Below, one piece after another: positions 52,221-64,000 of a stretch of DNA of 64,000 nucleotides. The translations under genes and the position numbers were made by a program. Source of the stretch: Candidatus Borrarchaeum weybense (lineage in GTDB: Archaea > Asgardarchaeota > Sifarchaeia > Borrarchaeales > Borrarchaeaceae); assembly GCA_019057385.1 (NCBI GenBank), contig JAHQJS010000006.1, positions 581,038 through 645,037 on the forward strand, in the 5' to 3' direction. The notes below the pieces were generated by a model. That model was given only the letters and a program-made list of their open reading frames with translations, ran no database searches and had not been told where the DNA came from. Every line of letters starts with the position of its first letter. The first letter of the stretch is position 1.

Positions 52221-52426
52221 CTCCAGAGAGGGGATTTTAGTTTTTAGATAAGAATATGAGAGTACTGCTATTTAAATTTAACGCTAGCGTTTAAATAAGT
52301 CAATTTGCGGAGAAATTTACCACAAAATATATATAAAAGTAGTGACATTGTTTCTATTAACAAGCTTTGAAGGATGGTGATGTATGGATACGTTAGTAGC
52401 TAAGTCGCTGTGTTCAATCGGGCGCG

Positions 52427-52450
52427 TAGTCGCATAGTCGCATAGTCGCG
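52427..52450 (+). repeat. (TAGTCGCA)x3 iteron-like repeat
   Basis: Three tandem 8-mers; repeated at 53062-53085 and, degenerate, at 58646-58669. Confidence 0.85.
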
Positions 52451-52645
52451 CAGTTTTTGGACGCACCCACCCCACCAAATAGGACGGGCAAGAGCTATTC
52501 TACTTGTTAAAGACAACGTCAATTGATGGAGCTTATACCATCAACTCAACTCCTGGAGAGCCAACTTATACTTGGGGGGTCACACCCCCCGAGCTCCACC
52601 CTTAAAAAATTCACTTTTGTATATGGAGCTCATGCTCAGGAGTTT

Positions 52646-52966
52646 ATGAAATTGTATTTGTGTTCTAAATGTGGAACAACTCGCCACACACCCAATTTAT
52701 TTGAAGGTAAACCATACTGTCGTAAGTGTTACAAAAAAGTGATTCAGAAGCCAAAAGGTTGTTCTATCCCTTTAGGGATACCCCCTAAAAATAGAGGTAA
52801 CTATCGAAAAAGTCAGGGTTTACGTAAAAGAAGAATCTGGCGAGTAGTCAGAAATCAATCTGGTGAGATTATAGAAGAAGAGAGAATACCAAACCGCAAA
52901 GGACGTTTTAACCGTCATATCTCTCTAAATATGAAGGATAAACTCACCCCTCAACCCAATCATTAA
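52646..52966 (+). CDS. Basic Zn-finger protein
   Basis: CSKC..CRKC; ATG 52646 follows a GGAGCT leader and SD GGAG. Confidence 0.7.
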   Translation: MKLYLCSKCGTTRHTPNLFEGKPYCRKCYKKVIQKPKGCSIPLGIPPKNRGNYRKSQGLRKRRIWRVVRNQSGEIIEEERIPNRKGRFNRHISLNMKDKLTPQPNH

Positions 52967-53002
52967 TCTTTTTTTTGTGGAGCTTGGCTCTAAGGTGGCT
53001 AA

Positions 53003-53080
53003 ATGAACCAAAGAGTAATTCTTGAGACCTTACTGAATTTCATTACTCTTGTTGTGGCTATTAGTCGCATAGTCGCATAG
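53003..53080 (+). CDS. 25-aa hydrophobic peptide
   Basis: MNQRVILETLLNFITLVVAISRIVA*; leader identical to that of 55392. Confidence 0.45.
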   Translation: MNQRVILETLLNFITLVVAISRIVA

Positions 53081-53085
53081 TCGCA
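53062..53085 (+). repeat. (TAGTCGCA)x3 perfect repeat
   Basis: Direct reading. Confidence 0.85.
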
Positions 53086-53302
53086 CAAAAAGGAGAGATA
53101 CACCTTGCAAGACAAATTTAATAAGAAAAACGTAACTCTCCGCCTTGTCTTGTGGTATTTTGCAATACACCAAGACGCGAGACTACTAAACTTTGTGGTC
53201 GCGGCGTAATTTGTTCAAGACTACTTAAGTACTTAGGTACATAGGTATCGTCATACCTAAGTAGTCCTCTTTTTTGGAGCTCTAAGGCTCTGGAGTGAAA
53301 TT

Positions 53303-55045
53303 ATGACTGAAGCAATAGAAGAAGCCACAAATCCTGAAAAGGAATGGCTAAAAACTTTAGTTCGAGCGGATTTTGAAAAAACTAAAGAGGATGAAGAACT
53401 TAAACTAAAACCCATAACCTCAGGGATACAATCACTAATCCTTGAATTCTACCAGCGGTTATCCTCGACAGATACACCAGACGAATTCGATCAGTTTTAC
53501 AGTGAAAGACTGAAACAGTATAAAGCAATGCATTTGTTCATCAGTTTCCTTAATGAATATGCGGTTAAATTGGGGTTATCTCCCCGACCAACGGCACCAG
53601 AGTTTTACAGGAATTCACAAGAAGTAGAAAAGTATCTCTTTGAGATTACTGAAGCTACTCTCGGAGAACCACAGACACTTAAAACCTTGCAAGATCAGAT
53701 CAGTGCAAAATATCCCGATCTACTCAGTCAAATCATTAAAAATGAAATTGACAAAACGAACGGGAAATATGAAGATTTTGTCAACAACGAAATGACAGAG
53801 ATTGAGGAGAAAATTGATTTAGGGGTCGAAATAGAACTTGATCCCGTCATCAGTAAACAATTGCAATTAATCGAGGAATCTAAGGGAAAAATTCAGCAAA
53901 TTTCAGCAGAATTAAACAAGATGATTATTCTCGGTGAAACGGTATGGGAATATCTCATCTATGCAATGGTGAGCCCGCACTGCCCACCCTTTTACATCAA
54001 TGGTCTTAAAAAACGTGCTAATTTGCACGTACTTCTGGTGGGCGATATTTCTACAGCAAAGTCAGAAATCATCGACGTTACTGATGAAATAGCCTTTAAG
54101 AGTTTTAAAATAGACGATAGCACACGCGCCGCTATGGAAGGAAAATATACTACTGAAGGAATCGAAGCTGGGGTTATCGACCATGCTAACAATGGCTTGC
54201 TCTGTATTCACGAATTCGATAAAGCCTTGAAGGAGTTTAAATTACTCCGAAGGTGTCTCGATTGCAGAGATTTTACAATTGCGAAAGGCGAGCACATGAA
54301 AATCACTAACATCAACATGACACTTTTCTGTGGAGCCAACCCAACCGATGATTTTTTCCATAAAGAATGTTATCGGGATCAGATCCCCTTTTCAGAGGGG
54401 CTTCTGAGCAGGTTTGATATAACATTGCCCCTCCAATCTACCCCACTACGTAATAACCTCATGCTTGATCGTTTAGACCTCTTTTCCGAAGATAAAATCG
54501 TTGATATTACAAAAACCAAAGAAATCTTAGCAACTTTAATTCATGGCATACAGAAACTCAAAGGCGTTAAAATCGAACAAGAACACCAAAAAATGATAAA
54601 AGAAGTCTTTCGTCTGTATAACATTCGTTTACCACGCCGCCCCTTTGTAATCCTTCGAGACCTCGAAACCATTGCCCGATTTGTCAATGTAATAGCGTCT
54701 GCCAACTTTTATAATAGACAGGTAAAAGACGGCTACGTGTATGCTATAAAAGAGGACATTGAGAAAGCAATTTCCCTATGGGAGGACTTAATGCACCGCC
54801 GCCGACAACTGTACGAAGAAACAGGCGCAAAGAAAGAATTGACAAGCATTGATGACATAATCAAGAAAGAAATCATCATGCACGGTAAAGACCACATTAA
54901 AAGTACGGATCTTTATGAGATAATCGTGGAAAAACTCCATATATGTCACAAAGCGACCTTCTATAGAGCACTAAATCGCATGGAAGCGCAGGGAAAAATA
55001 CAACGTAAAGGCAGGAAAAACGCAACAATCATCCTCAACTCCTAA
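53303..55045 (+). CDS. Divergent MCM-family helicase with non-canonical N-terminus and C-terminal wHTH
   Basis: HVLLVGDISTAKS, EAGVIDHANNGLLCIHEFDK, GANP, LLSRFD and RDLE. Confidence 0.85.
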   Translation: MTEAIEEATNPEKEWLKTLVRADFEKTKEDEELKLKPITSGIQSLILEFYQRLSSTDTPDEFDQFYSERLKQYKAMHLFISFLNEYAVKLGLSPRPTAPEFYRNSQEVEKYLFEITEATLGEPQTLKTLQDQISAKYPDLLSQIIKNEIDKTNGKYEDFVNNEMTEIEEKIDLGVEIELDPVISKQLQLIEESKGKIQQISAELNKMIILGETVWEYLIYAMVSPHCPPFYINGLKKRANLHVLLVGDISTAKSEIIDVTDEIAFKSFKIDDSTRAAMEGKYTTEGIEAGVIDHANNGLLCIHEFDKALKEFKLLRRCLDCRDFTIAKGEHMKITNINMTLFCGANPTDDFFHKECYRDQIPFSEGLLSRFDITLPLQSTPLRNNLMLDRLDLFSEDKIVDITKTKEILATLIHGIQKLKGVKIEQEHQKMIKEVFRLYNIRLPRRPFVILRDLETIARFVNVIASANFYNRQVKDGYVYAIKEDIEKAISLWEDLMHRRRQLYEETGAKKELTSIDDIIKKEIIMHGKDHIKSTDLYEIIVEKLHICHKATFYRALNRMEAQGKIQRKGRKNATIILNS

Positions 55046-55140
55046 TTTTTTTCTCATTACTTAAGTACTTGTAAATGGAGCTTACTTCCAGGAGTAATAT
55101 TTTTAACATAGTCACTACAAAAGTATATACGGTGTTTATA

Positions 55141-55356
55141 TTGATCGAAAAAAAGAAAGTTTATAGATCAGGCAACTCAAAAGCCGTCCTCATACCCGCC
55201 TCTACATTTAAAGCGATGGAGAAACCCGATAAGGTATCAGTTGCTTTTAACGAGGTTATGATAGTTTTTAATGAGGATATGGACATTGAGATGATTAAAT
55301 CTGACATCTTAAACCTTCTCAAGTCAATAGAACTGCGTTATGGGAAGGTTACATAA
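55141..55356 (+). CDS. AbrB/MazE-like DNA-binding protein
   Basis: KKVYRSGNSKAVLIPA; TTG start after GGTG. Confidence 0.7.
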   Translation: MIEKKKVYRSGNSKAVLIPASTFKAMEKPDKVSVAFNEVMIVFNEDMDIEMIKSDILNLLKSIELRYGKVT

Positions 55357-55391
55357 TTCTTTTTTGTGGAGCTTGGCTCTAAGGTGGATTT

Positions 55392-55646
55392 ATGGTAATT
55401 AAAGGCGAAGCGCAAACCATGCACCAAGCATGGCAAAAAGCCTTTGTGAATCTCGAAGAAACTATTAAAGAACGAGAAGTCGAACTTAAAAGACTACAAA
55501 CGGCTAAAAAAGAATGTCAGAAAAAACTCACAAAGGCGAATAAACAAACGGTTCTTGAACTAATTGAGACACGAATTGATTACTTACAGAAAAAACTCGA
55601 AAGCGAGAGAAGTATGCTCAATAGTTTAGAACCTTACAACTCTTAA
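55392..55646 (+). CDS. Coiled-coil hypothetical protein
   Basis: 84 aa with heptads; conserved leader. Confidence 0.7.
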   Translation: MVIKGEAQTMHQAWQKAFVNLEETIKEREVELKRLQTAKKECQKKLTKANKQTVLELIETRIDYLQKKLESERSMLNSLEPYNS

Positions 55647-55692
55647 CCTTTTTTTCCCTTCTTGTGGAGCTATAAGGCTCTGGAGTGAAAAC

Positions 55693-56184
55693 ATGACCTT
55701 AGAATACAAAGGGTTTTTTAAAAACGTAAACTACGAACCCGAAAAGGGAGATTGGATCGAGGTTTTTGCAAGCGATTGGAACAAAGACTATTGGGCATTC
55801 TACGCATACATTCCATTCGAGAACTATGAACAAGGAATTCAAGTGATCAATGACTTGATCGGCGAATTGAATTGGCGAGACGGGGACGTATATATTGAGT
55901 TAATTAATATGAGTCCTGGTCTTGAAAAATTGTATAACAAACTCTACGATGACGGCTATTTTGCTCATTGGTCGGCTCTTAATCCCGACAAATGGCGCGA
56001 ATATTTAGAGGAAATCGAAGAGGAAGAAGCCGAAGAATTTTCCGACTTCAAAGATCAATATTTTAGGAAAAACTGTCAAACAAAATCAATTGAAGAGTGC
56101 GATGAAACGTCTTGCAATGAATCTTGTATAGATGAATGGGCGTATCCTCAACGACCAGATCCATCCCTGTATTACGACCAATAA
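55693..56184 (+). CDS. Acidic hypothetical protein
   Basis: Very D/E/W/Y-rich; conserved leader. Confidence 0.75.
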   Translation: MTLEYKGFFKNVNYEPEKGDWIEVFASDWNKDYWAFYAYIPFENYEQGIQVINDLIGELNWRDGDVYIELINMSPGLEKLYNKLYDDGYFAHWSALNPDKWREYLEEIEEEEAEEFSDFKDQYFRKNCQTKSIEECDETSCNESCIDEWAYPQRPDPSLYYDQ

Positions 56185-56238
56185 ATCTCCACCTTTTTTT
56201 TCTTTCATGGAGCTAACAAAGGCTCAGGAGTGTTTACT

Positions 56239-56619
56239 ATGAATGTCGAAATCAATTCTTTCGCGGATCTTATATACGTCCTATCTGAATTCGCAAAAGT
56301 TGATAAAAACTACGAATGGCACGTCAGTGAAGACGATGAACGTGTGTATTTAACACATTTCAGATGTGAAACTTCAGAAGCACCAGAATATTTTGTAAAT
56401 GACAGGAAACAAGACTTCAAAAAGTTGTGGGACACCGCATATCAGTACACCTTACGGTGTGCGACTTCTAAGGAAGAACCGAGTTTTGAGGCTCTTTGTA
56501 ATGCGATAAAGAAACAGAACATCGAAATCAGAACGTCGACGGATGAGGAACGGCTTTCCTATGTAGATCGAATCACTGAAATGGACGCTAATATGGAAGA
56601 AGAACTTGCTATGGAGTGA
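56239..56619 (+). CDS. Acidic hypothetical protein
   Basis: ATG 56239 after leader GGAGTG. Confidence 0.7.
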   Translation: MNVEINSFADLIYVLSEFAKVDKNYEWHVSEDDERVYLTHFRCETSEAPEYFVNDRKQDFKKLWDTAYQYTLRCATSKEEPSFEALCNAIKKQNIEIRTSTDEERLSYVDRITEMDANMEEELAME

Positions 56620-56641
56620 AGATCAGAATTAGGGTGTTTAC

Positions 56642-56776
56642 ATGACAGAAGAACGCGAATTTAGTGTATTTGTCATCTTAAGAAAGATGGCGACAGACCG
56701 CCAAGACGCTTTAGATAAAGTAGATCAGGACATACTCGATAAAGATTTCGAAATTTACGATGTCATTGAATCTTAA
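56642..56776 (+). CDS. 44-aa acidic microprotein (not in ORF track)
   Basis: GGGTG SD; MTEEREFSVFVILRKMATDRQDALDKVD..IES*. Confidence 0.55.
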   Translation: MTEEREFSVFVILRKMATDRQDALDKVDQDILDKDFEIYDVIES

Positions 56777-56869
56777 ACGAGACTACTTAGGTAATTAGGT
56801 ACTTAGGTAATTCCAAACATCTCCTATTTTTTTATGTGTGGAGCTTCAAAAGGCTCTGGAGTGAACAAT

Positions 56870-57814
56870 ATGGTACAAATCAAATTTGATAGTGCAAAAC
56901 TTTGGTCTTCTCTTGTGAAGGGTGTAAATGCTCTCATAAAAGAAGCCGAATTTGAGACCACTAAAGAAGGACTACATCTTCGAGCAATTGATGACGCGCA
57001 CATTGCCATGATCGACTTGGACATACCAAGCGATTCTATGAAAGAATACTCTTTTACTCTTCATGACAAAGAGGCAGACTTCGCGAAATTCGGCATAAAT
57101 ATTACTGAAATGGCTACAATAATGCGACGTATCCCCATTGGAGAAAAATTGACGCTGACATTGGATTCACAAAAAAGCAAATTTCATGTCGTAGCAGACT
57201 CTTTATACACAAAACGACGATTTTCAATTCCTCTCCTAGGTTCAACTTCCGCTGAAGACATTCCTGTACCGAAGATAGACTTTACAACAAAAATCAAACT
57301 TAAAGCAAAGTACCTCAAAGAGGCAATTAAAGACGCCGCTGTGATGGGTGACTATTTAAAACTCAAGACGACTGCCGATAAATTTTCTTTATGGGCAGAA
57401 GGCGATACAGGAAACGTCAGCATAGACTATGAATATGGAGAATCAATCTCTCTTGAGAAACGCGGTGACGCTGTTGGAATTTATGCTTTAAAGTACTTAG
57501 ACGATATGACCGATCCTATCCCTGGCGAATCTGAGGTAAGTATTGAGTTCTCAAATGATATGCCTCTGAAACTTACGTGGATGTTAAACGGCTCAAAACT
57601 AGATTACTACTTAGCTCCACGTATTCCACCCTCGGATGAAGAACCACCAAAAAAAGAGGAAAAGGAACAAGAAAAAACTAAGGATGACACAGAAGAGGAA
57701 AAAGAAACGCACGAAGAAACTAAGGAATTCCCTTGTGACGAGTGCGGAAAGACCTTTACTAGCCAAAGAGGACTTAACACACACATGCGCGTACATAAAG
57801 ACTCTGATGAATAG
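56870..57814 (+). CDS. pcn: PCNA sliding clamp fused to an acidic linker and a classical C2H2 zinc finger
   Basis: LRAIDDAHIAMIDL, YALKYL, EFSNDMPLKL and YYLAPRI; tail FPCDECGKTFTSQRGLNTHMRVH. Confidence 0.9.
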   Translation: MVQIKFDSAKLWSSLVKGVNALIKEAEFETTKEGLHLRAIDDAHIAMIDLDIPSDSMKEYSFTLHDKEADFAKFGINITEMATIMRRIPIGEKLTLTLDSQKSKFHVVADSLYTKRRFSIPLLGSTSAEDIPVPKIDFTTKIKLKAKYLKEAIKDAAVMGDYLKLKTTADKFSLWAEGDTGNVSIDYEYGESISLEKRGDAVGIYALKYLDDMTDPIPGESEVSIEFSNDMPLKLTWMLNGSKLDYYLAPRIPPSDEEPPKKEEKEQEKTKDDTEEEKETHEETKEFPCDECGKTFTSQRGLNTHMRVHKDSDE

Positions 57815-57883
57815 TCCTTCCTCTATTTTTTCTCGTTACTTAAGTAATTTTTTAAGGAGCTTCTGACTCCAGGGTGTATTTAC

Positions 57884-58168
57884 ATGAACGGATGGAAAAA
57901 AATATGGGATACCGAAGAAAAAGGACTCTACAAAGACAATTCTTTCTCGTTCGTTGATTTTGAGAAAGAGGACTTATATCTATTGATACAAAAGTCTGGT
58001 CCGAGTGGTTGGTATCTTTATTTATTTGAACACGGTAGCCCAAGAACTGTTGGATGGGCTACTACAAAAGAAAAAGCCTTAGAGATAGCTAAGTTTATGA
58101 TGGAAACAGATAATTTCCCACCAGCACATAAGTACTTCAATGCGGATCTTGAACTTTGTAAGTCCTAA
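57884..58168 (+). CDS. Hypothetical protein
   Basis: 94 aa, TKEKALEIAKFMM motif; conserved leader. Confidence 0.7.
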   Translation: MNGWKKIWDTEEKGLYKDNSFSFVDFEKEDLYLLIQKSGPSGWYLYLFEHGSPRTVGWATTKEKALEIAKFMMETDNFPPAHKYFNADLELCKS

Positions 58169-58231
58169 CATCCTTTTTTTCTAATTCTGTCTGCAAAGTG
58201 CTGCAGGGGCTCAAACCTCCAGGATCAGAAT

Positions 58232-58319
58232 TTGTTATTACAATTCAGGCCCTTACTTTCATTTTGTTATCACATTTGTAATAACATTCTACACCCGGCA
58301 ACTTATTTTGTGATGACAA
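58232..58319 (+). promoter_or_regulatory. Operator array B: four TTGTnATnACAA palindromes upstream of a TATA box
   Basis: Boxes at 58232, 58264, 58276 and 58308; AAAATATATAA at 58344. Confidence 0.75.
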
Positions 58320-58377
58320 ATTATAACCTAATAACTGAGACACAAAATATATAATTGAGTTCTTATAATGTAGTTCA

Positions 58378-58622
58378 TGAGACACACACGAAATACATCT
58401 ACAAGGTCGCACCCTTGCTGACCTATTATGTCTCAGAAAAGGAAGGGTCTCCTGCCGCGGGAGTTTGAAACGTCACTCACTTCCCTCCGTGAGTAAGCGG
58501 GCGTGGTCACGACTCGAAATGTGGGTAAAAGTCGTGTAGTGAAGTCAGTGAAACAGAAAACTCATAAAAAGAAAAAACCCTCCTGAGGTAGAAGAACGGG
58601 GGTTCGATTCCCCCAAGCTCCT
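58378..58622 (+). ncRNA. Structured ncRNA ending in a tRNA/tmRNA-like acceptor plus T-arm domain
   Basis: GGAGTTT(58460)/AAGCTCC(58615) 7-bp stem; GGGGG-TTCGATT-CCCCC T-arm (58598-58614); internal hairpins; no long ORF. Confidence 0.65.
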
Positions 58623-58748
58623 CCCTCAAAAATTAAAGACTAGCGTAGCCGCATAGTCATATAGTCGCAAATATTATTTATACGTGGAGCTTAATAAATT
58701 TAATGGAACGGGAGTTTTTACTTCAGAACTACTTAGGTAGTGCGAAAT

Positions 58749-59690
58749 ATGTCCTTAGTGCACTTTTTGCAGAAAAACCCTGACTACCTCTCAGGTGTCA
58801 GAAGAATCCTCGAATATGAAGAGGACCATAAAGACGATCAGTATTTCAAGGACTTAGGGTGGTCTTGGGATGATATTAGACTTTCAGGACCACACTTGAA
58901 TCAGTTAGTTTTGGCGGGAATAATTCAAATTGTGTATAAATCCCGCAAGAATCGCGGCTATTTGTTAGTAGATCGAGAAAAAACAAAGAAAGAGATCGAA
59001 CTATACGAAGCACAATTAAATTATAGTCCAGAGACAGACGAAGAGATTGAATTCTCAGAATCTATCTTTGATGACATTATAGGCTATAACGATGTGAAAA
59101 AACTCTTTAAACGGGCGTTGCGGAGTGAAGAACCGATACATATCCTCATGATTGGACCACCCGCCAGCGCAAAGAGTATGTTTCTTTTTTGTCTTGCACG
59201 TTTAGATGGGGCTCATTATTCTCTTGGCTCATCGAGTACCAAAAGCGGATTATCTGATTTTCTTATTGAGTATTCTCCGCGCATATTATTGATCGACGAG
59301 TTGGACAAAATGAACACACCTGACTACTCCGTACTGCTCTCCTTATGTGAGAGTGGACTTGTGGGAGAAACAAAATACAAGAGAGTACGAAGTGTTCAGT
59401 TGAAATGTTCTGTATTCGCGGCTGCCAATGATGACAAAAAAATTCCGCGAGAAGTTAAAAGTCGATTTATTGCACTTCGATTTAAGGAGTATTCAAAAGC
59501 AGATTTTATAGAAACTGCCGTAAAACTTCTTATGCGGGAAGGAAAAGACCATGACTTAGCCACCTATATCGCTGAAAAAGTATGGCACTTTAAAAACCGC
59601 GATATAAGAGACTGCATACAGATAAGCCGCTTAGGAGATACACAAGAAGAGATCGACTCAACCCTGAAAACACTTCAGAAGTATTCGTGA
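58749..59690 (+). CDS. wHTH plus AAA+ ATPase (MCM/RuvB-like, typical of archaeal integrative elements)
   Basis: HILMIGPPASAKS, LIDELDK, AAAN, SRF and DIRD. Confidence 0.85.
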   Translation: MSLVHFLQKNPDYLSGVRRILEYEEDHKDDQYFKDLGWSWDDIRLSGPHLNQLVLAGIIQIVYKSRKNRGYLLVDREKTKKEIELYEAQLNYSPETDEEIEFSESIFDDIIGYNDVKKLFKRALRSEEPIHILMIGPPASAKSMFLFCLARLDGAHYSLGSSSTKSGLSDFLIEYSPRILLIDELDKMNTPDYSVLLSLCESGLVGETKYKRVRSVQLKCSVFAAANDDKKIPREVKSRFIALRFKEYSKADFIETAVKLLMREGKDHDLATYIAEKVWHFKNRDIRDCIQISRLGDTQEEIDSTLKTLQKYS

Positions 59691-59742
59691 GTACCTAAGT
59701 ACTCATGTTTGTTTTATTTTTTCTTTTCATGGAGCTTCAATC

Positions 59743-61461
59743 ATGAAGGCTCTACCACAAACAGGAGGAATTCAAATTTCGTGGATACATGAATTTTTTG
59801 AGAAATATCGTGCCCAAATAACACCCCTCAGTATCACACATTTCAATATCGAGGATTTCCCGCAACTTTTTACTGCAAAAGTAAATGGGAAAACTCTTCC
59901 TGGATATTTTGAATTCGTAATTGAGTATGATATTGGATCGGGGTTATGTCCTTTTGAACCACAAAAAACAGACTCTGAACAACTTACAACAGATGAAGAC
60001 AGCTCTGAACAAATTACAATGACCGACAAACTACGTCAAGAATATGCGAAGTTTATACAGTCAGACGAAGTTTATGAACTACCTGTTGATCCCGTAGAAA
60101 CGCTGAACTTTATCCGCTATTTATTCCGCGAATATAAGGGGCTTTTTGTTCTTTATGATTGCGAAACAATAGCACCTGACAGTTCGGCGGCACACATGAC
60201 GCTACAGGATCGTCAATGTTCGCAACTACTTAAAAATTTAGCATTAGACCACAAAATTCGCAAAAAAGGAAGCGCAATCATAGTGACTGCCGAGAGGCTT
60301 GAGGATATTGCCCAAAAAGTCCGAAAGGTAGCTAATATCATTGAAATTCCGCTTCCTGACGATACATCACGAAAGAAAGTGTTTGAACAAGCAACTGAAA
60401 AAGTCGCTTATAATCCTAAGGACTTGGATCAATGGGTAGTCGGATCGAAAGGTTTGACAATCAAAGAACTTAAGTCGATCATAGTTGAACTTTATCAGAA
60501 AGACACCACAATTATGTTAGGTGACTTCTATGATCAAAAAGCGAAAAAGTTAGAGAAGTACGACATGGTCTCTTTAGAGAATCCAAAGTTCGGATTCGAG
60601 GGCTTAGTTCTACCAGACTACTTAAGTACTTTCCTTAAGACCTTCATAATAAAGCCATATCAACAAGCTATGCAAATTCGTCCAAAAGGGATCTTGTTCA
60701 CAGGACCACCAGGCACAGGGAAATCAGTGTTGGCGGAAGTAATAGCCTACGAACTTAACAGACCGTTGATTACCGTTGACGCAAGTAATTTACTCTCTCA
60801 ATATGTCGGGGAGAGTGAGAAACGGACTGCTCAATTTTTCCGAGTAATCAGACAATTTGGTGAGGCAGTTGTCCTTATTGATGAAGCCGAAGAATTACTC
60901 AGCGAGCGATCTACAGCAGTCAACACTGATAGCGGTGTGACATCCAATTTGAAGGCAACCTTTCTTCATGAAATGGCGAGAGATCATGGAGTATTGTTTA
61001 TACTCAATACTAATTATCCAATGAAACTCGATGCTGCCATGGTTCGTGTGGGCAGAATTAATTACAAAATACCACTTTTGCCACCATTTACCGCTGAAGA
61101 ACGGGCTAAAATACTTCGTGTGGTGTTAGATGTTCAATTAAAAGTCCCATACGATAAGAACATAGATTTTGAAGCAATTGCCGCAACACTTCAGGGATAC
61201 ACAGGCGCAGAATTACGAGAATTAGCAAGTGTAGCATGGGCTATTGCTTGTGTTGAAAATGACAAAGAAAAAACCGAGCAGGAAGATTTTGATGTCGCAA
61301 AAACGGTGTTTCTACCCGATACGCGAAAGATCAAAGAAATGACCGCCGACGCACTTTCAGTAGTGAATGACAAAAGGCTTTTGCCGCCACAACTCCACAA
61401 AGAAAAAGAAAAGAAGGTTCAAGAGTTTCAAGAAGGCACTTGGGATTCACTCTTTCAATAA
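59743..61461 (+). CDS. Ycf46-like AAA+ ATPase (degenerate N-terminal AAA plus active C-terminal AAA)
   Basis: PKGILFTGPPGTGKS, YVGESE, IDEAE, LDAAMVRVGRI and GYTGAEL; true start may be ATT 59776. Confidence 0.85.
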   Translation: MKALPQTGGIQISWIHEFFEKYRAQITPLSITHFNIEDFPQLFTAKVNGKTLPGYFEFVIEYDIGSGLCPFEPQKTDSEQLTTDEDSSEQITMTDKLRQEYAKFIQSDEVYELPVDPVETLNFIRYLFREYKGLFVLYDCETIAPDSSAAHMTLQDRQCSQLLKNLALDHKIRKKGSAIIVTAERLEDIAQKVRKVANIIEIPLPDDTSRKKVFEQATEKVAYNPKDLDQWVVGSKGLTIKELKSIIVELYQKDTTIMLGDFYDQKAKKLEKYDMVSLENPKFGFEGLVLPDYLSTFLKTFIIKPYQQAMQIRPKGILFTGPPGTGKSVLAEVIAYELNRPLITVDASNLLSQYVGESEKRTAQFFRVIRQFGEAVVLIDEAEELLSERSTAVNTDSGVTSNLKATFLHEMARDHGVLFILNTNYPMKLDAAMVRVGRINYKIPLLPPFTAEERAKILRVVLDVQLKVPYDKNIDFEAIAATLQGYTGAELRELASVAWAIACVENDKEKTEQEDFDVAKTVFLPDTRKIKEMTADALSVVNDKRLLPPQLHKEKEKKVQEFQEGTWDSLFQ

Positions 61462-61558
61462 TTTCCTCTTTTTTTTCTTTATCACTACTTAGGTAATTGT
61501 GTTCATTTTTAGAGGGGCTTCTTCTCCAGGAAGCTACTAACTTTAATGAGGAAAAAAG

Positions 61559-62059
61559 TTGAGTAAATATCTCGAAGTAAAAACTCAATTCAAAAGTATG
61601 GCACATCTTATCGAGGCATTAACATCAATCTATGGCTACGGTACAGTCAAAGCGGGTAAAAATTTACCTCTCAAGGATTATCTTGGCAATATACGACCAG
61701 AAAAGGCAGATATCGTAGTACCAAGACGCTTCATTCATCCAGCGTCAAACGATCTTGGATTCAAGAAAAATGAAAACGGTGTTTATACCATGATTATCTC
61801 AGAATTTGACGAAGTAGTAGCATCAATGACTCCCCAAAGACTCGCTAATGAACTTAATTTGTATGGTCCGCCATATTCGACTCAATGCAAAGGAATTCCG
61901 AATACTGAGATAAAGAAACAATACAATCTCAGTTTTATCAGAGACTTTGCCAAGAAAAACCGTTGGAATCTGTCATTGACAGACAAAGAAACTCATTTTG
62001 AAGTTCGTTTGAAACGAAGAGTGACTGTTTCCGCAAAAGCAAGGAGGTCTGCCAGATGA
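61559..62059 (+). CDS. DUF1257 (Ycf35-like) protein
   Basis: SKYLEVKTQF..LIEAL, ADIVVPR..SNDLGF..YTMIISEFD. Confidence 0.8.
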   Translation: MSKYLEVKTQFKSMAHLIEALTSIYGYGTVKAGKNLPLKDYLGNIRPEKADIVVPRRFIHPASNDLGFKKNENGVYTMIISEFDEVVASMTPQRLANELNLYGPPYSTQCKGIPNTEIKKQYNLSFIRDFAKKNRWNLSLTDKETHFEVRLKRRVTVSAKARRSAR

Positions 62060-62262
62060 CACAAGAAGAGCAGATCTTCTTCAAAATCGACAAAAAGACA
62101 GGTAACTTGACAATCGAAGGCAAAGGATTCGAAGGACCGATCTGTGAAGACGTTTTAAAGTCATTTGAAGAGTTAGGAGAGATAACACATGACAAAAGAA
62201 CACCAGAGTACTATAAAAAACCTCGACAAGTCCAAACAACCCGCCAACGACTTAGACATTAA
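62056..62262 (+). CDS. DUF2997 protein
   Basis: FKIDKKTG..IEGKGFEGPIC..ELG..TPEYY. Confidence 0.8.
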   Translation: MTQEEQIFFKIDKKTGNLTIEGKGFEGPICEDVLKSFEELGEITHDKRTPEYYKKPRQVQTTRQRLRH

Positions 62263-62448
62263 AATAAAAACAATAATTCGCATTGAGGACGATGGAACAG
62301 TCATTTTTTGCGATATTCCAACTGAGTTAATCCCTTTAGCCTTAGCATTGCGGGGCGATTAATTTCTCTTTTTTTTCTTATTATTTAGGTAATTCGTTAG
62401 GATGGAGCTTCTTCGTTGAGAGGCTACCAACTTCAGGAGAAAACCAAG

Positions 62449-63591
62449 ATGTCAGATACGAAAAACATTTCCATTTCTGTTAATGAAATGGATGTTCTTC
62501 TGAATGGTCAACGAATAGATCTTCATATCTCGTCAGGAGATATGTTTAGTCAATCTAAGTTGAATAAATTGCTCTACAAAGGATATAAAAGGCTTTCATC
62601 AACAATGGTGAAAACTTATACAAACGGCGATACTCTCACGCTTGATTCAATCAAGACAAAAGCACATGAACTAAGGCAGAAATACTGTTTCAGGTTATTT
62701 GAAAACAGCGTTGAAGACAACAGAGGGGCTGTATATTTTTGTCCCGAGTCTCTGACCGAAAAGTTGCGCAAAGACCTACGGGAACTCAAAAAGGAATATA
62801 AAAAGACACTTGAGTTTATTGGCAAAATCAGAGATACTTTGAATGAAGAAATCTTTAGTTTTTACAGTGAGCATTGTATTTATTGCGGGCGACCTGTGAA
62901 AGAAGAAAAGGCGGGAAAGATCATAAAATTGCGATGCACAGGCGATGATTCGCATATATTCACTAAAAAACTCATGGATCATTGGTTAGAACAAAATAAG
63001 TCGGTGATAGAAGTACCCTCGTTAGAGGAGATTAAAGCGCGAAAGAGATTTTATTATCGCTTCAGCAAATATTTTTTCCCCACTGAAGAACTCACTGACA
63101 ACTTAGTTGATACACAACTTAAACAGCAAAAGCAAAAAATGTATCAGGCAGAATTATCTACATGCAAGTCTGCAATAAAAAAACAGTTATGGCAAAAGAT
63201 GAAGTTAATCCTTGAATACATAGATGATCGGCTTTCAAAAAGAGAAAAACTTCGTGCAGACCAACTTGATAAAATCAAGAATGATTTAGATGCATTAGAA
63301 GAACTAAATAAAAGCACCTTCAAAATTCCTCAGATTTCTAATTCTATAGACAATCTCAATGCACAGATTGCAGACAAAGAAGCTGCACTGAAAGTTTTGA
63401 CAAACATCTCGAAGAACATCGAAAAGAAAATCAAAGAAGCTGAAGAAAATGAAAATATTGCGATGGATCTAATAGACAAATTAGAGGACATCGACATAGA
63501 AATTGGTACAGAAACGCTTGAACTAGAACAAAAAGAAGCAGTTGAAATTGAACTTGGTGACCAGAAAGAAGAGATTTTTTCTACAAATTAG
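62449..63591 (+). CDS. DUF3150-like coiled-coil protein with inserted Zn ribbon
   Basis: RGAVYFCPE motif, CIYC..C..H insert, position after DUF1257/DUF2997. Confidence 0.55.
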   Translation: MSDTKNISISVNEMDVLLNGQRIDLHISSGDMFSQSKLNKLLYKGYKRLSSTMVKTYTNGDTLTLDSIKTKAHELRQKYCFRLFENSVEDNRGAVYFCPESLTEKLRKDLRELKKEYKKTLEFIGKIRDTLNEEIFSFYSEHCIYCGRPVKEEKAGKIIKLRCTGDDSHIFTKKLMDHWLEQNKSVIEVPSLEEIKARKRFYYRFSKYFFPTEELTDNLVDTQLKQQKQKMYQAELSTCKSAIKKQLWQKMKLILEYIDDRLSKREKLRADQLDKIKNDLDALEELNKSTFKIPQISNSIDNLNAQIADKEAALKVLTNISKNIEKKIKEAEENENIAMDLIDKLEDIDIEIGTETLELEQKEAVEIELGDQKEEIFSTN

Positions 63592-63682
63592 TTTAAATCA
63601 AATCTTAGTACCTAGGTACTAAGAAATATTTTTCAATTTTTTATTTTTATGTGGGGCTTCATGGCTCAGGGGTGAACAAACT

Positions 63683-63880
63683 ATGCCTATAGATTCATGG
63701 CAAGAGTTCATTGAAACGATCAAAGGGCTTCTAATTGGTTGCGGTATAGATATTATTATTGTGTCTTTCTATATTCCAGAAGTCCGCAATGATCTCAATT
63801 ATTGGGTTCTCACACCAATACTCATCATCTTAGACTTTCTTGTGCGCTTTGTGAGAACCTTTTTTATTTTTTTATTATGA
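63683..63880 (+). CDS. Small 2-TM protein
   Basis: 65 aa; conserved leader GGGGCTTCATGGCTCAGGGGTGA. Confidence 0.6.
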   Translation: MPIDSWQEFIETIKGLLIGCGIDIIIVSFYIPEVRNDLNYWVLTPILIILDFLVRFVRTFFIFLL

Positions 63881-64000
63881 GGGGCTTCTTCTCCAGGAAG
63901 AACGCTACCAACTTTTTGTGAGGGATTAATATAAGACAACGAAAAAAGATTCAACTTCTGAGGGTCTCTCCAGTCACACGAATGAGACTTGTCAAAAAGT

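Follow-up and report, generated by a model that had tools for sequence, protein, structure and literature searches.

Elements that resemble tRNAs serve as processing signals in long transcripts, such as the tRNA-like element before haloarchaeal 5S rRNA, the mascRNA of MALAT1, and the TMERs of gammaherpesviruses. Transfer-messenger RNA (tmRNA) is bacterial. To our knowledge, almost nothing has been reported about the control of gene expression in the mobile elements of Asgard archaea, and we know of no natural trans guide for RNase P. Here, we describe two paralogous elements, el1 and el2, in a 64,000-nt stretch of DNA from Candidatus Borrarchaeum weybense, an Asgard archaeon of the Sifarchaeia. 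This whole stretch, called the window, corresponds to C6:581038-645037, where C6 is a contig of an 8-contig, 4.18-Mb genome. Each element has a G/C hairpin, with an antisense strand upstream (box 2) and another downstream (box 1), and is complementary to a leader that is repeated before the genes in the right arm of an integrated mobile element. A preliminary description of the locus proposed that el2 is part of a tRNA-like noncoding RNA that guides host RNase P to these leaders. We argue that both elements may instead act in cis, as structured leaders at the heads of two operons.

External guide sequences for RNase P have been engineered in stem and three-quarter-tRNA designs (PMC4693268). 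The elements described here resemble them in that the guide gives the acceptor 3' strand behind a T stem-loop, as well as a second helix, while the target gives the 5' strand, and the cut would fall 5' of the first paired base. Unlike the engineered guides, el1 and el2 are natural, carry NCCC rather than NCCA, have a non-T loop in one copy, and find their best partner in cis. The order of their parts (T-arm, acceptor 3' strand, N-CC, AU-rich loop, acceptor 5' strand) is that of circularly permuted tRNA genes and of the two-piece tmRNA in Rfam family RF04321. In contrast to that family, they lack pseudoknots, a tag reading frame, and the D and anticodon arms, and they score 21.1 bits (el1) and 18.6 bits (el2) against a threshold of 47. 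El1 is also similar to 5' untranslated regions (UTRs) that sequester the Shine-Dalgarno sequence (SD), since the predicted partner of its upstream CUCC-rich strand is the SD, as far as the start codon, and relatives have a hairpin and an anti-SD:SD pairing in cis. It differs from such UTRs in its three-way junction with an inserted tRNA-like hairpin and in that the antisense also fits the whole leader family. The haloarchaeal 5S element, mascRNA, and TMERs likewise place a mimic of the tRNA top half within a non-tRNA viral or operon transcript. However, these are self-contained cloverleaf-like folds, whereas the 5' strand for el1 and el2 would be supplied by a leader box that recurs before many genes.

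Results

A repeated leader and two antisense elements at the heads of two apparent operons

The features of the locus are listed in Table 1. Sixteen stereotyped leaders were found in the window, all on the + strand, which agrees with the earlier count of about 16 genes preceded by a common leader. From 5' to 3', each has a T-run, then GGRGCTN, which a loop of 3-12 nt separates from GCTCY or CTCC, and finally an SD (GGAGTG, GGTGG, or AGGAG) and a start codon. GGAG and GGTG are SD sequences here because the 16S rRNA of the host, which contains insertions, ends in GGATCACCTCCT. The leaders precede genes of the replication module. GGRGCTT was found 22 times in the window compared to 10.5 +/- 2.8 times in shuffles, none of which reached 22, and 15 of the 22 fall in the interval 52.5-63.9 kb of the + strand. 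Over the entire right arm (52.3-68 kb), the + strand has 25 copies of GGRGCT versus 3 of AGCYCC. Two of those three are hairpin-linked 3' strands and the third is coding.

For most leaders, a small 5' hairpin is predicted in which GGRGC pairs with the downstream GCUCY or CUCC. The variable loop length, together with a swap of GGCUCU for CUCC in a related strain that kept GGAGCUA, points to an RNA hairpin rather than a DNA site. The T-runs were also considered as TATA boxes of the individual genes. This was disfavored, as transcription would then begin, judging by the spacing, within the SD or beyond it, and the TATA boxes of the host look different.

The sequence CCCC-R-AGCTCC has exactly two sites in the 4.18-Mb genome, at 52587 in el1 and at 58611 in el2. 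The two elements are paralogous, with C5-R-AGCTCC-W-CCC followed by an A-run in both, and a near-identical CACAAAATATATA box stands about 200-270 nt upstream of each. Since the ordinary leaders have no comparable TATA box, el1 and el2 appear to head two operons. Each is a bipartite antisense of a whole leader in which the G/C hairpin replaces the spacer; for example, CUCCUGAG in box 2 of el2 is complementary to CUCAGGAG of the leaders. The sequence at 58598-58621 (GGGGG TTCGATT CCCCC, AAGCTCC) was as given in the preliminary description, and AAGCTCC is indeed the reverse complement of GGAGCTT, the start of the leaders. It is followed by TCCC, and the tail of el1 is ACCC, so neither tail encodes CCA. 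El2 has the canonical T-loop TTCGATT, while the loop of el1, TCACA, is not a T-loop.

Iteron blocks, (ATAGTCGC)x3, lie upstream of the zinc-ribbon gene that opens operon 1 and of both MCM-family genes; no such block was found elsewhere in the genome. They are candidate origin iterons or operator arrays. The second block falls within a possible 25-codon open reading frame (ORF; 53004-53081).

Predicted folds

The fold of el1 with the first leader of its operon reached -40.3 kcal/mol compared to -23.8 +/- 3.1 kcal/mol for shuffled sequences (z = -5.4), and 0 of 200 shuffles were as good. The predicted structure is a three-way junction of the hairpin, an 8-bp helix between box 1 and the downstream GGAGCUC, and an 8+4-bp helix over the SD. 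In both the minimum free energy (MFE) structure and the centroid, box 2 forms this last helix with GCUC and with CAGGAGUU (52634-52644), the SD immediately 5' of the ATG at 52646. The anti-SD strand is thus predicted to make 8 bp on CAGGAGUU beside the AUG, an arrangement that would sequester the SD in cis. The base-pair probability of box 1 is 0.98-1.0 with the downstream TGGAGCTC and 0 with an upstream GGAGCTT (52528).

In el2, the predicted T-arm is robust, and a 12-bp helix, present in both the MFE structure and the centroid, closes the fold. This helix stops 22 nt before the AUG and leaves the SD uncovered. Box 1 takes part in a CUCCC:GGGAG pairing in the MFE structure, and AAGCUC is single-stranded beside the T-arm. 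The preliminary description had closed the acceptor stem with the element's own upstream GGAGTTT, the order seen in a normal tRNA, and folding does not support this. Forcing the upstream closure costs +8.9 kcal/mol for el2 and +11.6 kcal/mol for el1, with a probability of about 0. The best-supported partner is the box directly downstream in the same RNA. This permuted closure is the MFE structure for el1 and costs +2.1 kcal/mol for el2. Position 7 is compensatory between the elements, with G of el1 (GAGCTCC) facing C of GGAGCTC and A of el2 (AAGCTCC) facing T of GGAGCTT, but this is a single event and carries little weight.

Complementarity to the leaders

The first 5-7 nt of 17 of the 18 leaders, including two past the window, pair with AAGCUCC in silico. 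The hairpin abuts box 1 without a linker in both elements, giving a coaxial stack of 5+7 bp in el2 and 6+7 bp in el1. A 7-bp acceptor-like helix abutting a T stem-loop, a 12-bp stack, is the geometry of an external guide, and it is reproduced here in silico. On cofolding, nearly every leader was paired on both sides of the hairpin with its SD covered. The mean ddG of the element cores with the 18 leaders was -12.2 kcal/mol for el1 and -10.9 kcal/mol for el2, compared to -5.3 and -5.4 kcal/mol with 150 SD-led 5' UTRs of the host (P about 1e-9). Shuffled leaders and random genomic 40-mers gained about -5 kcal/mol, and genes in the left arm of the same mobile element mostly -0.5 to -6 kcal/mol. 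Energies from duplexfold were set aside because it allowed very long interior loops.

The complementarity reported earlier is non-random, and it is longer than was claimed, being bipartite, flanking the hairpin, and covering the SD. The proposal that the leaders are the partners of the 3' strand holds in one respect, the specificity for right-arm leaders over host UTRs, but every leader has a conserved local GGRGC partner of its own. There is also a match by operon: el1 paired best with class A leaders of operon 1 and el2 with GAGGGGCUUCUUCU-type leaders of operon 2, and this preference held when the adjacent leader was excluded (P = 0.003). Position 7 of box 1 is U in 8/8 operon-2 leaders, which matches the A of el2. 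Both the own-operon match and the position-7 U could be obtained by local duplication. Since the leaders are one family, and an inverted duplication of a neighboring leader would give the same pattern, the complementarity figures show specificity and not function.

Conservation in a related strain

A strain about 95% identical was recovered from Logan contigs via protein clusters, and its ORFs differ by 5.3%. Searches of sequencing runs with an 8.9-kb stretch of the locus and with 58300-58800 listed no RNA run. None of the 118 nt in the el1 region (52528-52645) differs (P = 0.002), and the P2 leader containing el2 (58378-58748) differs at 6 of 371 nt compared to 19.7 expected from the ORF rate (P = 0.0003). 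On these counts, el1 and el2 are evidently under purifying selection. None of the changes in the el1 and el2 regions bears on pairing, so the elements, which are themselves invariant in the strain, are conserved without covariation. The best-conserved intergenic segment is 52967-53302, which holds iterons and palindromes and differs at 3 of 336 nt.

The strain has kept all GGRGCT boxes, and every ordinary leader keeps its local GGRGC partner, even where the strain has CUCC in place of GGCUCU. At 55647-55692 (L164:2590-2645 in the strain), the leader of a 163-aa gene has been exchanged for another type, with 30% of positions different and GGAGCTA and the 5' hairpin retained. Leaders appear to be swapped as cassettes.

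Searches for tRNA, tmRNA, and relatives

The description of el2 as a tRNA-like noncoding RNA stands in part. Its T-arm is canonical, but ARAGORN found 0 tRNA or tmRNA genes in the window, and Rfam gave no tRNA or tmRNA match at the gathering score. At E <= 10, Rfam matched the T-arm for tRNA and not a cloverleaf. El1 and el2 each give a weak match to positions 36-95 of tmRNA_permuted (RF04321), covering the T-arm, 3' strand, NCC, AU loop, and 5' strand, and the GGAGCTT at 58686 fits the permuted-tmRNA geometry. With scores of 18.5-21.1 bits for RF00023 and RF04321, both elements fall outside these tmRNA families. Two ARAGORN calls were discarded as artefacts: a "tRNA-Gly with 95-nt intron" at a lowered threshold, which had mismatched stems, and a tmRNA seen only at -ps80, which had an implausible 5-residue tag.

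The closest MCM homologues are 31-41% identical and are found in MCM-PCNA modules of other uncultured elements. In one group of these (L036-L038, MCM 31% identical), a hairpin with a GUCACAC loop, the same type as the el1 loop, lies directly before an anti-SD:SD cis hairpin at several genes. The group also carries an intron-containing tRNA and, between the MCM and PCNA genes, a tRNA top-half mimic. In L036, the mimic has a perfect stem of its own and scores 31.8 bits against the Rfam tRNA threshold of 29, while the tRNA has a 37-nt intron, scores 58 bits, and was missed by ARAGORN. The hairpin with an anti-SD in cis thus forms the conserved theme of this group, in which tRNA-like arms recur.

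Closer relatives were not found by single-protein scans of viral contigs with the MCM or the AAA ATPase. No MCM relative at E <= 1e-20 was present in 400 genomes of the phylum, and no homologue of the RNA region in 4 congeners. In viral contigs, the leader pattern gave 15 single, unrelated, mostly high-GC matches, and the T-arm plus box 1 pattern gave none. A metagenome scan for paired TACTTAGGTA palindromes returned only low-complexity, unrelated DNA. None of these searches found diverged relatives suited to a covariation test. In a separate MCM-bearing element (L032, a 38-kb Logan contig), CTACAGGTG (TCTACAGGTGAAGAA) is repeated 26 times within 21 kb and seems to serve as a standard ribosome-binding leader. 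Standardized leaders may be common in the group of elements to which L032 belongs.

Table 1. Positions of the elements, leaders, and associated features. Coordinates are window positions unless a contig is named.
Feature	Position	Strand	Remark
P1, promoter-like B recognition element (BRE)/TATA box (CACAAAATATATA...), head of operon 1	52321..52340	+	near-identical copy at 58341; resembles TATA boxes of host tRNA genes; start site putative
Iteron block (ATAGTCGC x3), 3 copies	52426..52449, 53061-53084, 58645-58668	+	five overlapping matches vs 0.19 expected
el1	52548-52601	+	paralogue of el2
el1 box 2: anti-SD/anti-GCUC strand (AACUCCUG..GAGC, AGAGCC)	52548..52562	+	predicted partner 52634-52644
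el1 G/C hairpin: G6, 5-nt TCACA loop, C6	52574..52590	+	
el1 box 1: GAGCTCC, A, CCC	52591..52601	+	partner TGGAGCTC (52624-52631)
First leader of operon 1: GGAGCTC, GCTC, SD AGGAG, ATG at 52646	52625..52648	+	106-aa zinc-ribbon protein
Leader array, starts of box 1 (GGRGCT)	52625, 52979, 53276, 55077, 55368, 55666, 56209, 56840, 57856, 58206, 58686, 59731, 61514, 62404, 63653, 63881	+	spans 52625..63925
Two further leaders past the window	65627, 67564	+	series reaches ~67.6 kb; 18 in all
P2, second copy of promoter-like box, head of operon 2	58341..58355	+	preceded by TTGTTATCACA-type palindromes at ~58230-58320
Structured P2 leader RNA containing el2 (predicted)	58378..58726	+	extent inferred; no Rfam family match
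GGAGTTT, proposed 5' acceptor strand	58460..58466	+	pairing with 58615-58621: probability 0.0 in ensemble
el2 box 2: CCCUCCUGAGGUAGAAG, anti-SD plus strand of closing helix	58578..58594	+	58583-58594 pairs with 58715-58726 (predicted)
el2 T-arm: GGGGG TTCGATT CCCCC, 5-bp stem	58598..58614	+	base-pair probability 0.95
el2 box 1: AAGCTCC, T, CCC	58615..58625	+	several alternative partners predicted
Leader-like GGAGCTT without its own SD or start codon	58686..58692	+	candidate cis partner of el2 box 1
Tyrosine integrase	C6:675346-676521 (L167:10309-11484)	minus	just past last palindrome, right end of mobile element
Serine recombinase	L166:19196-19972		inside mobile element
Restriction-modification methylase with S subunit	L166:8782-12058		inside mobile element
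tRNA top-half mimic and intron-containing tRNA in L036	6551-6604 and 9368-9474		mimic without D or anticodon arm

The host genome and the mobile element

Many tRNA genes of the host have introns and an encoded CCA, and the genome contains an archaeal RNase P RNA (208 bits), so that its RNase P is RNA-based. A tight group of intron-less tRNA genes without encoded CCA, unlike those of the other contigs, was found on contig C1 (179 kb, 39% GC). This contig may be foreign to the genome, for which the contamination estimate is 7%.

The 10-bp palindrome TACYTARGTA occurs 45 times on C6, and 44 of these sites lie at window positions 36113-94094 (to C6:675131), while the other contigs have 3. This clustering outlines a mobile element of about 58 kb that extends past the end of the window. 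The sites are mostly in intergenic spacers of both arms, frequently in the context TTCGTGAC-TACTTAGGTA-GTTAGGA, and the palindrome is probably the operator for a regulator encoded by the element. Inverted repeats of the TTGTTATCACA/TGTAATAACA type, clustered at 58230-58320 directly 5' of P2 and with a similar repeat on the minus strand near window-equivalent 77036, look like a second kind of operator.

The part of the mobile element inside the window codes for an MCM helicase and a further MCM-like protein, as well as an AAA ATPase and a PCNA that carries a C2H2 zinc finger as a fusion. The part past the window adds a tyrosine integrase at the right end, along with a serine recombinase, a primase small-subunit domain, and a restriction-modification methylase. 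This gene content identifies an integrated mobile element, which is probably a provirus. No capsid gene was recognized among its genes, and no attachment (att) repeats or direct repeats were found at its ends. The PCNA (56834-57814), with its zinc finger at the C-terminus, is 46-48% identical to PCNA of the host genus; its true start is probably the ATG at 56870, behind an SD.

Discussion

We favor the reading, which has about an even chance of being correct, that el1 and el2 are cis-acting structured operon leaders and that their match to the other leaders follows from a shared cassette. The right arm would have been assembled from copies of one cassette, running from a U-run through a 5' GGRGCU hairpin and an SD to a start codon. 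After its copy of the promoter-like box, each operon would open with an anti-leader, an inverted cassette leader in which a G/C hairpin stands in for the spacer. The anti-leader would then fold onto the leader-like sequence immediately downstream in the same RNA to give a three-way junction, which in el1 would join box 1 to GGAGCUC and box 2 to the SD of the first cistron up to the AUG. Its action in cis could be to set translation, stability, or processing at the operon head. What we can show is the sequence of the elements, how they are predicted to fold, how well they are conserved, and how specific their complementarity is; we infer that they are transcribed, adopt this fold, and have a regulatory effect.

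A cis role is favored because it explains the most with the fewest assumptions, including the position at the operon heads, the predicted folds, the burial of the SD in el1, the analogy with the relatives, and the local partner of each ordinary leader. On this reading, the descent of all leaders from one cassette accounts for the match to the other 14-16. Several points weigh against it. The RNA is a prediction, as are its ends and fold, and the fold of el2 only modestly beats its shuffles (z = -2.2), with an ambiguous partner for box 1. A pure cis role leaves the own-operon preference unexplained, as well as the U at position 7 of the operon-2 leaders, the zero-nt junction between hairpin and box 1 with its tRNA-like 12-bp stack, and the T-loop of el2. 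Iterons also stand beside both elements, in line with a function at the DNA level, although we consider such a function quite improbable. The stack, the T-loop, and the operon-matched complementarity keep both trans antisense pairing and RNase P guiding alive.

If the elements act in trans, the P1 and P2 leader RNAs, or short forms of them made by attenuation or processing, would use box 1 and box 2 to pair with the leaders of the other cistrons in their own operon, mask the 5' hairpin and the SD, and tune translation of the replication module without RNase P. The leader-specific energies, the bipartite pairing over the SD, the own-operon preference, and the single-stranded AAGCUC beside the T-arm in the MFE structure of el2 are all consistent with this. 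However, the statistics count copies of one repeat family and not independent events, and inverted duplication of a neighboring leader would yield the same operon match. One anti-leader per transcript would also face 8-10 leaders, and the boxes of el1 are predicted to be fully occupied in cis. We therefore regard trans antisense action as fairly unlikely. The reading in which the elements mimic a tRNA is unlikely as well. Here, the hairpin on the 7-bp box 1:GGRGCU helix would form a tRNA top half, and RNase P would cut 5' of G1, acting in cis at the head of the operon and perhaps also in trans at the other leaders, and leaving mRNAs that start with a protective GGRGCU hairpin. Its stronger form seems doubtful: that el1 and el2 are natural external guides for cuts 5' of G1 both in cis and in trans at own-operon leaders, which would both punctuate and stabilize the mRNAs. 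The coaxial stack, the T-loop of el2, the N-CC-C tails close to N-CCA, the second 5'-side helix that mirrors three-quarter external guides, the RNase P RNA of the host, and the top-half mimic of the relative all suit RNase P. Against this, the tails are without CCA, the el1 loop is not a T-loop, and the local leader hairpins compete for the same bases. Pairing of N73 with N-1 disfavors correct cleavage by RNase P in general, and N73 of el1 is so paired. The mimic of the relative, with its own perfect stem, needs no partner, and literature searches turned up no natural trans guide for RNase P.

Two further explanations are less likely than the cis, trans antisense, and RNase P readings. The inverted repeats, G/C palindrome, and iterons could instead form a replication origin or protein-binding architecture by the two MCM-like genes, with the RNA pairing incidental. 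Iteron blocks flank el1 and follow el2, each upstream of an MCM-family gene, and the segment 52967-53302 is the best conserved. Yet the leader boxes are strictly strand-specific and in fixed register to the SD and start codons, and the loops between the paired boxes suit RNA hairpins and not dimeric DNA sites. It is very unlikely that the T-arm is a relic of a decayed tRNA gene or att site without present function, in which the 7-nt match arose by chance. The T-arm is tRNA-like, viruses of the group carry tRNA genes (as in L036), and the mobile element has a tyrosine integrase. Nevertheless, no host tRNA has the same 3' half within 3 mismatches, and the integrase is about 36 kb away at the end of the mobile element. 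The two paralogous copies, their extended bipartite complementarity, and their strong conservation relative to ORFs also speak against a relic. An att remnant was rejected, given that there is no second genomic copy and no direct repeats at the ends of the mobile element.

The locus presents a compact and testable system, in which about 18 genes share one standard leader and each operon has one conserved antisense element with a tRNA-like arm. The cis, trans, and RNase P readings differ in simple predictions for 5'-end mapping. If the elements act only in cis, they would represent a new design of translational operator. Action in trans would make them RNA regulators of a whole regulon in an archaeal provirus, and if RNase P is involved, they would be the first natural counterpart to external guide sequences.

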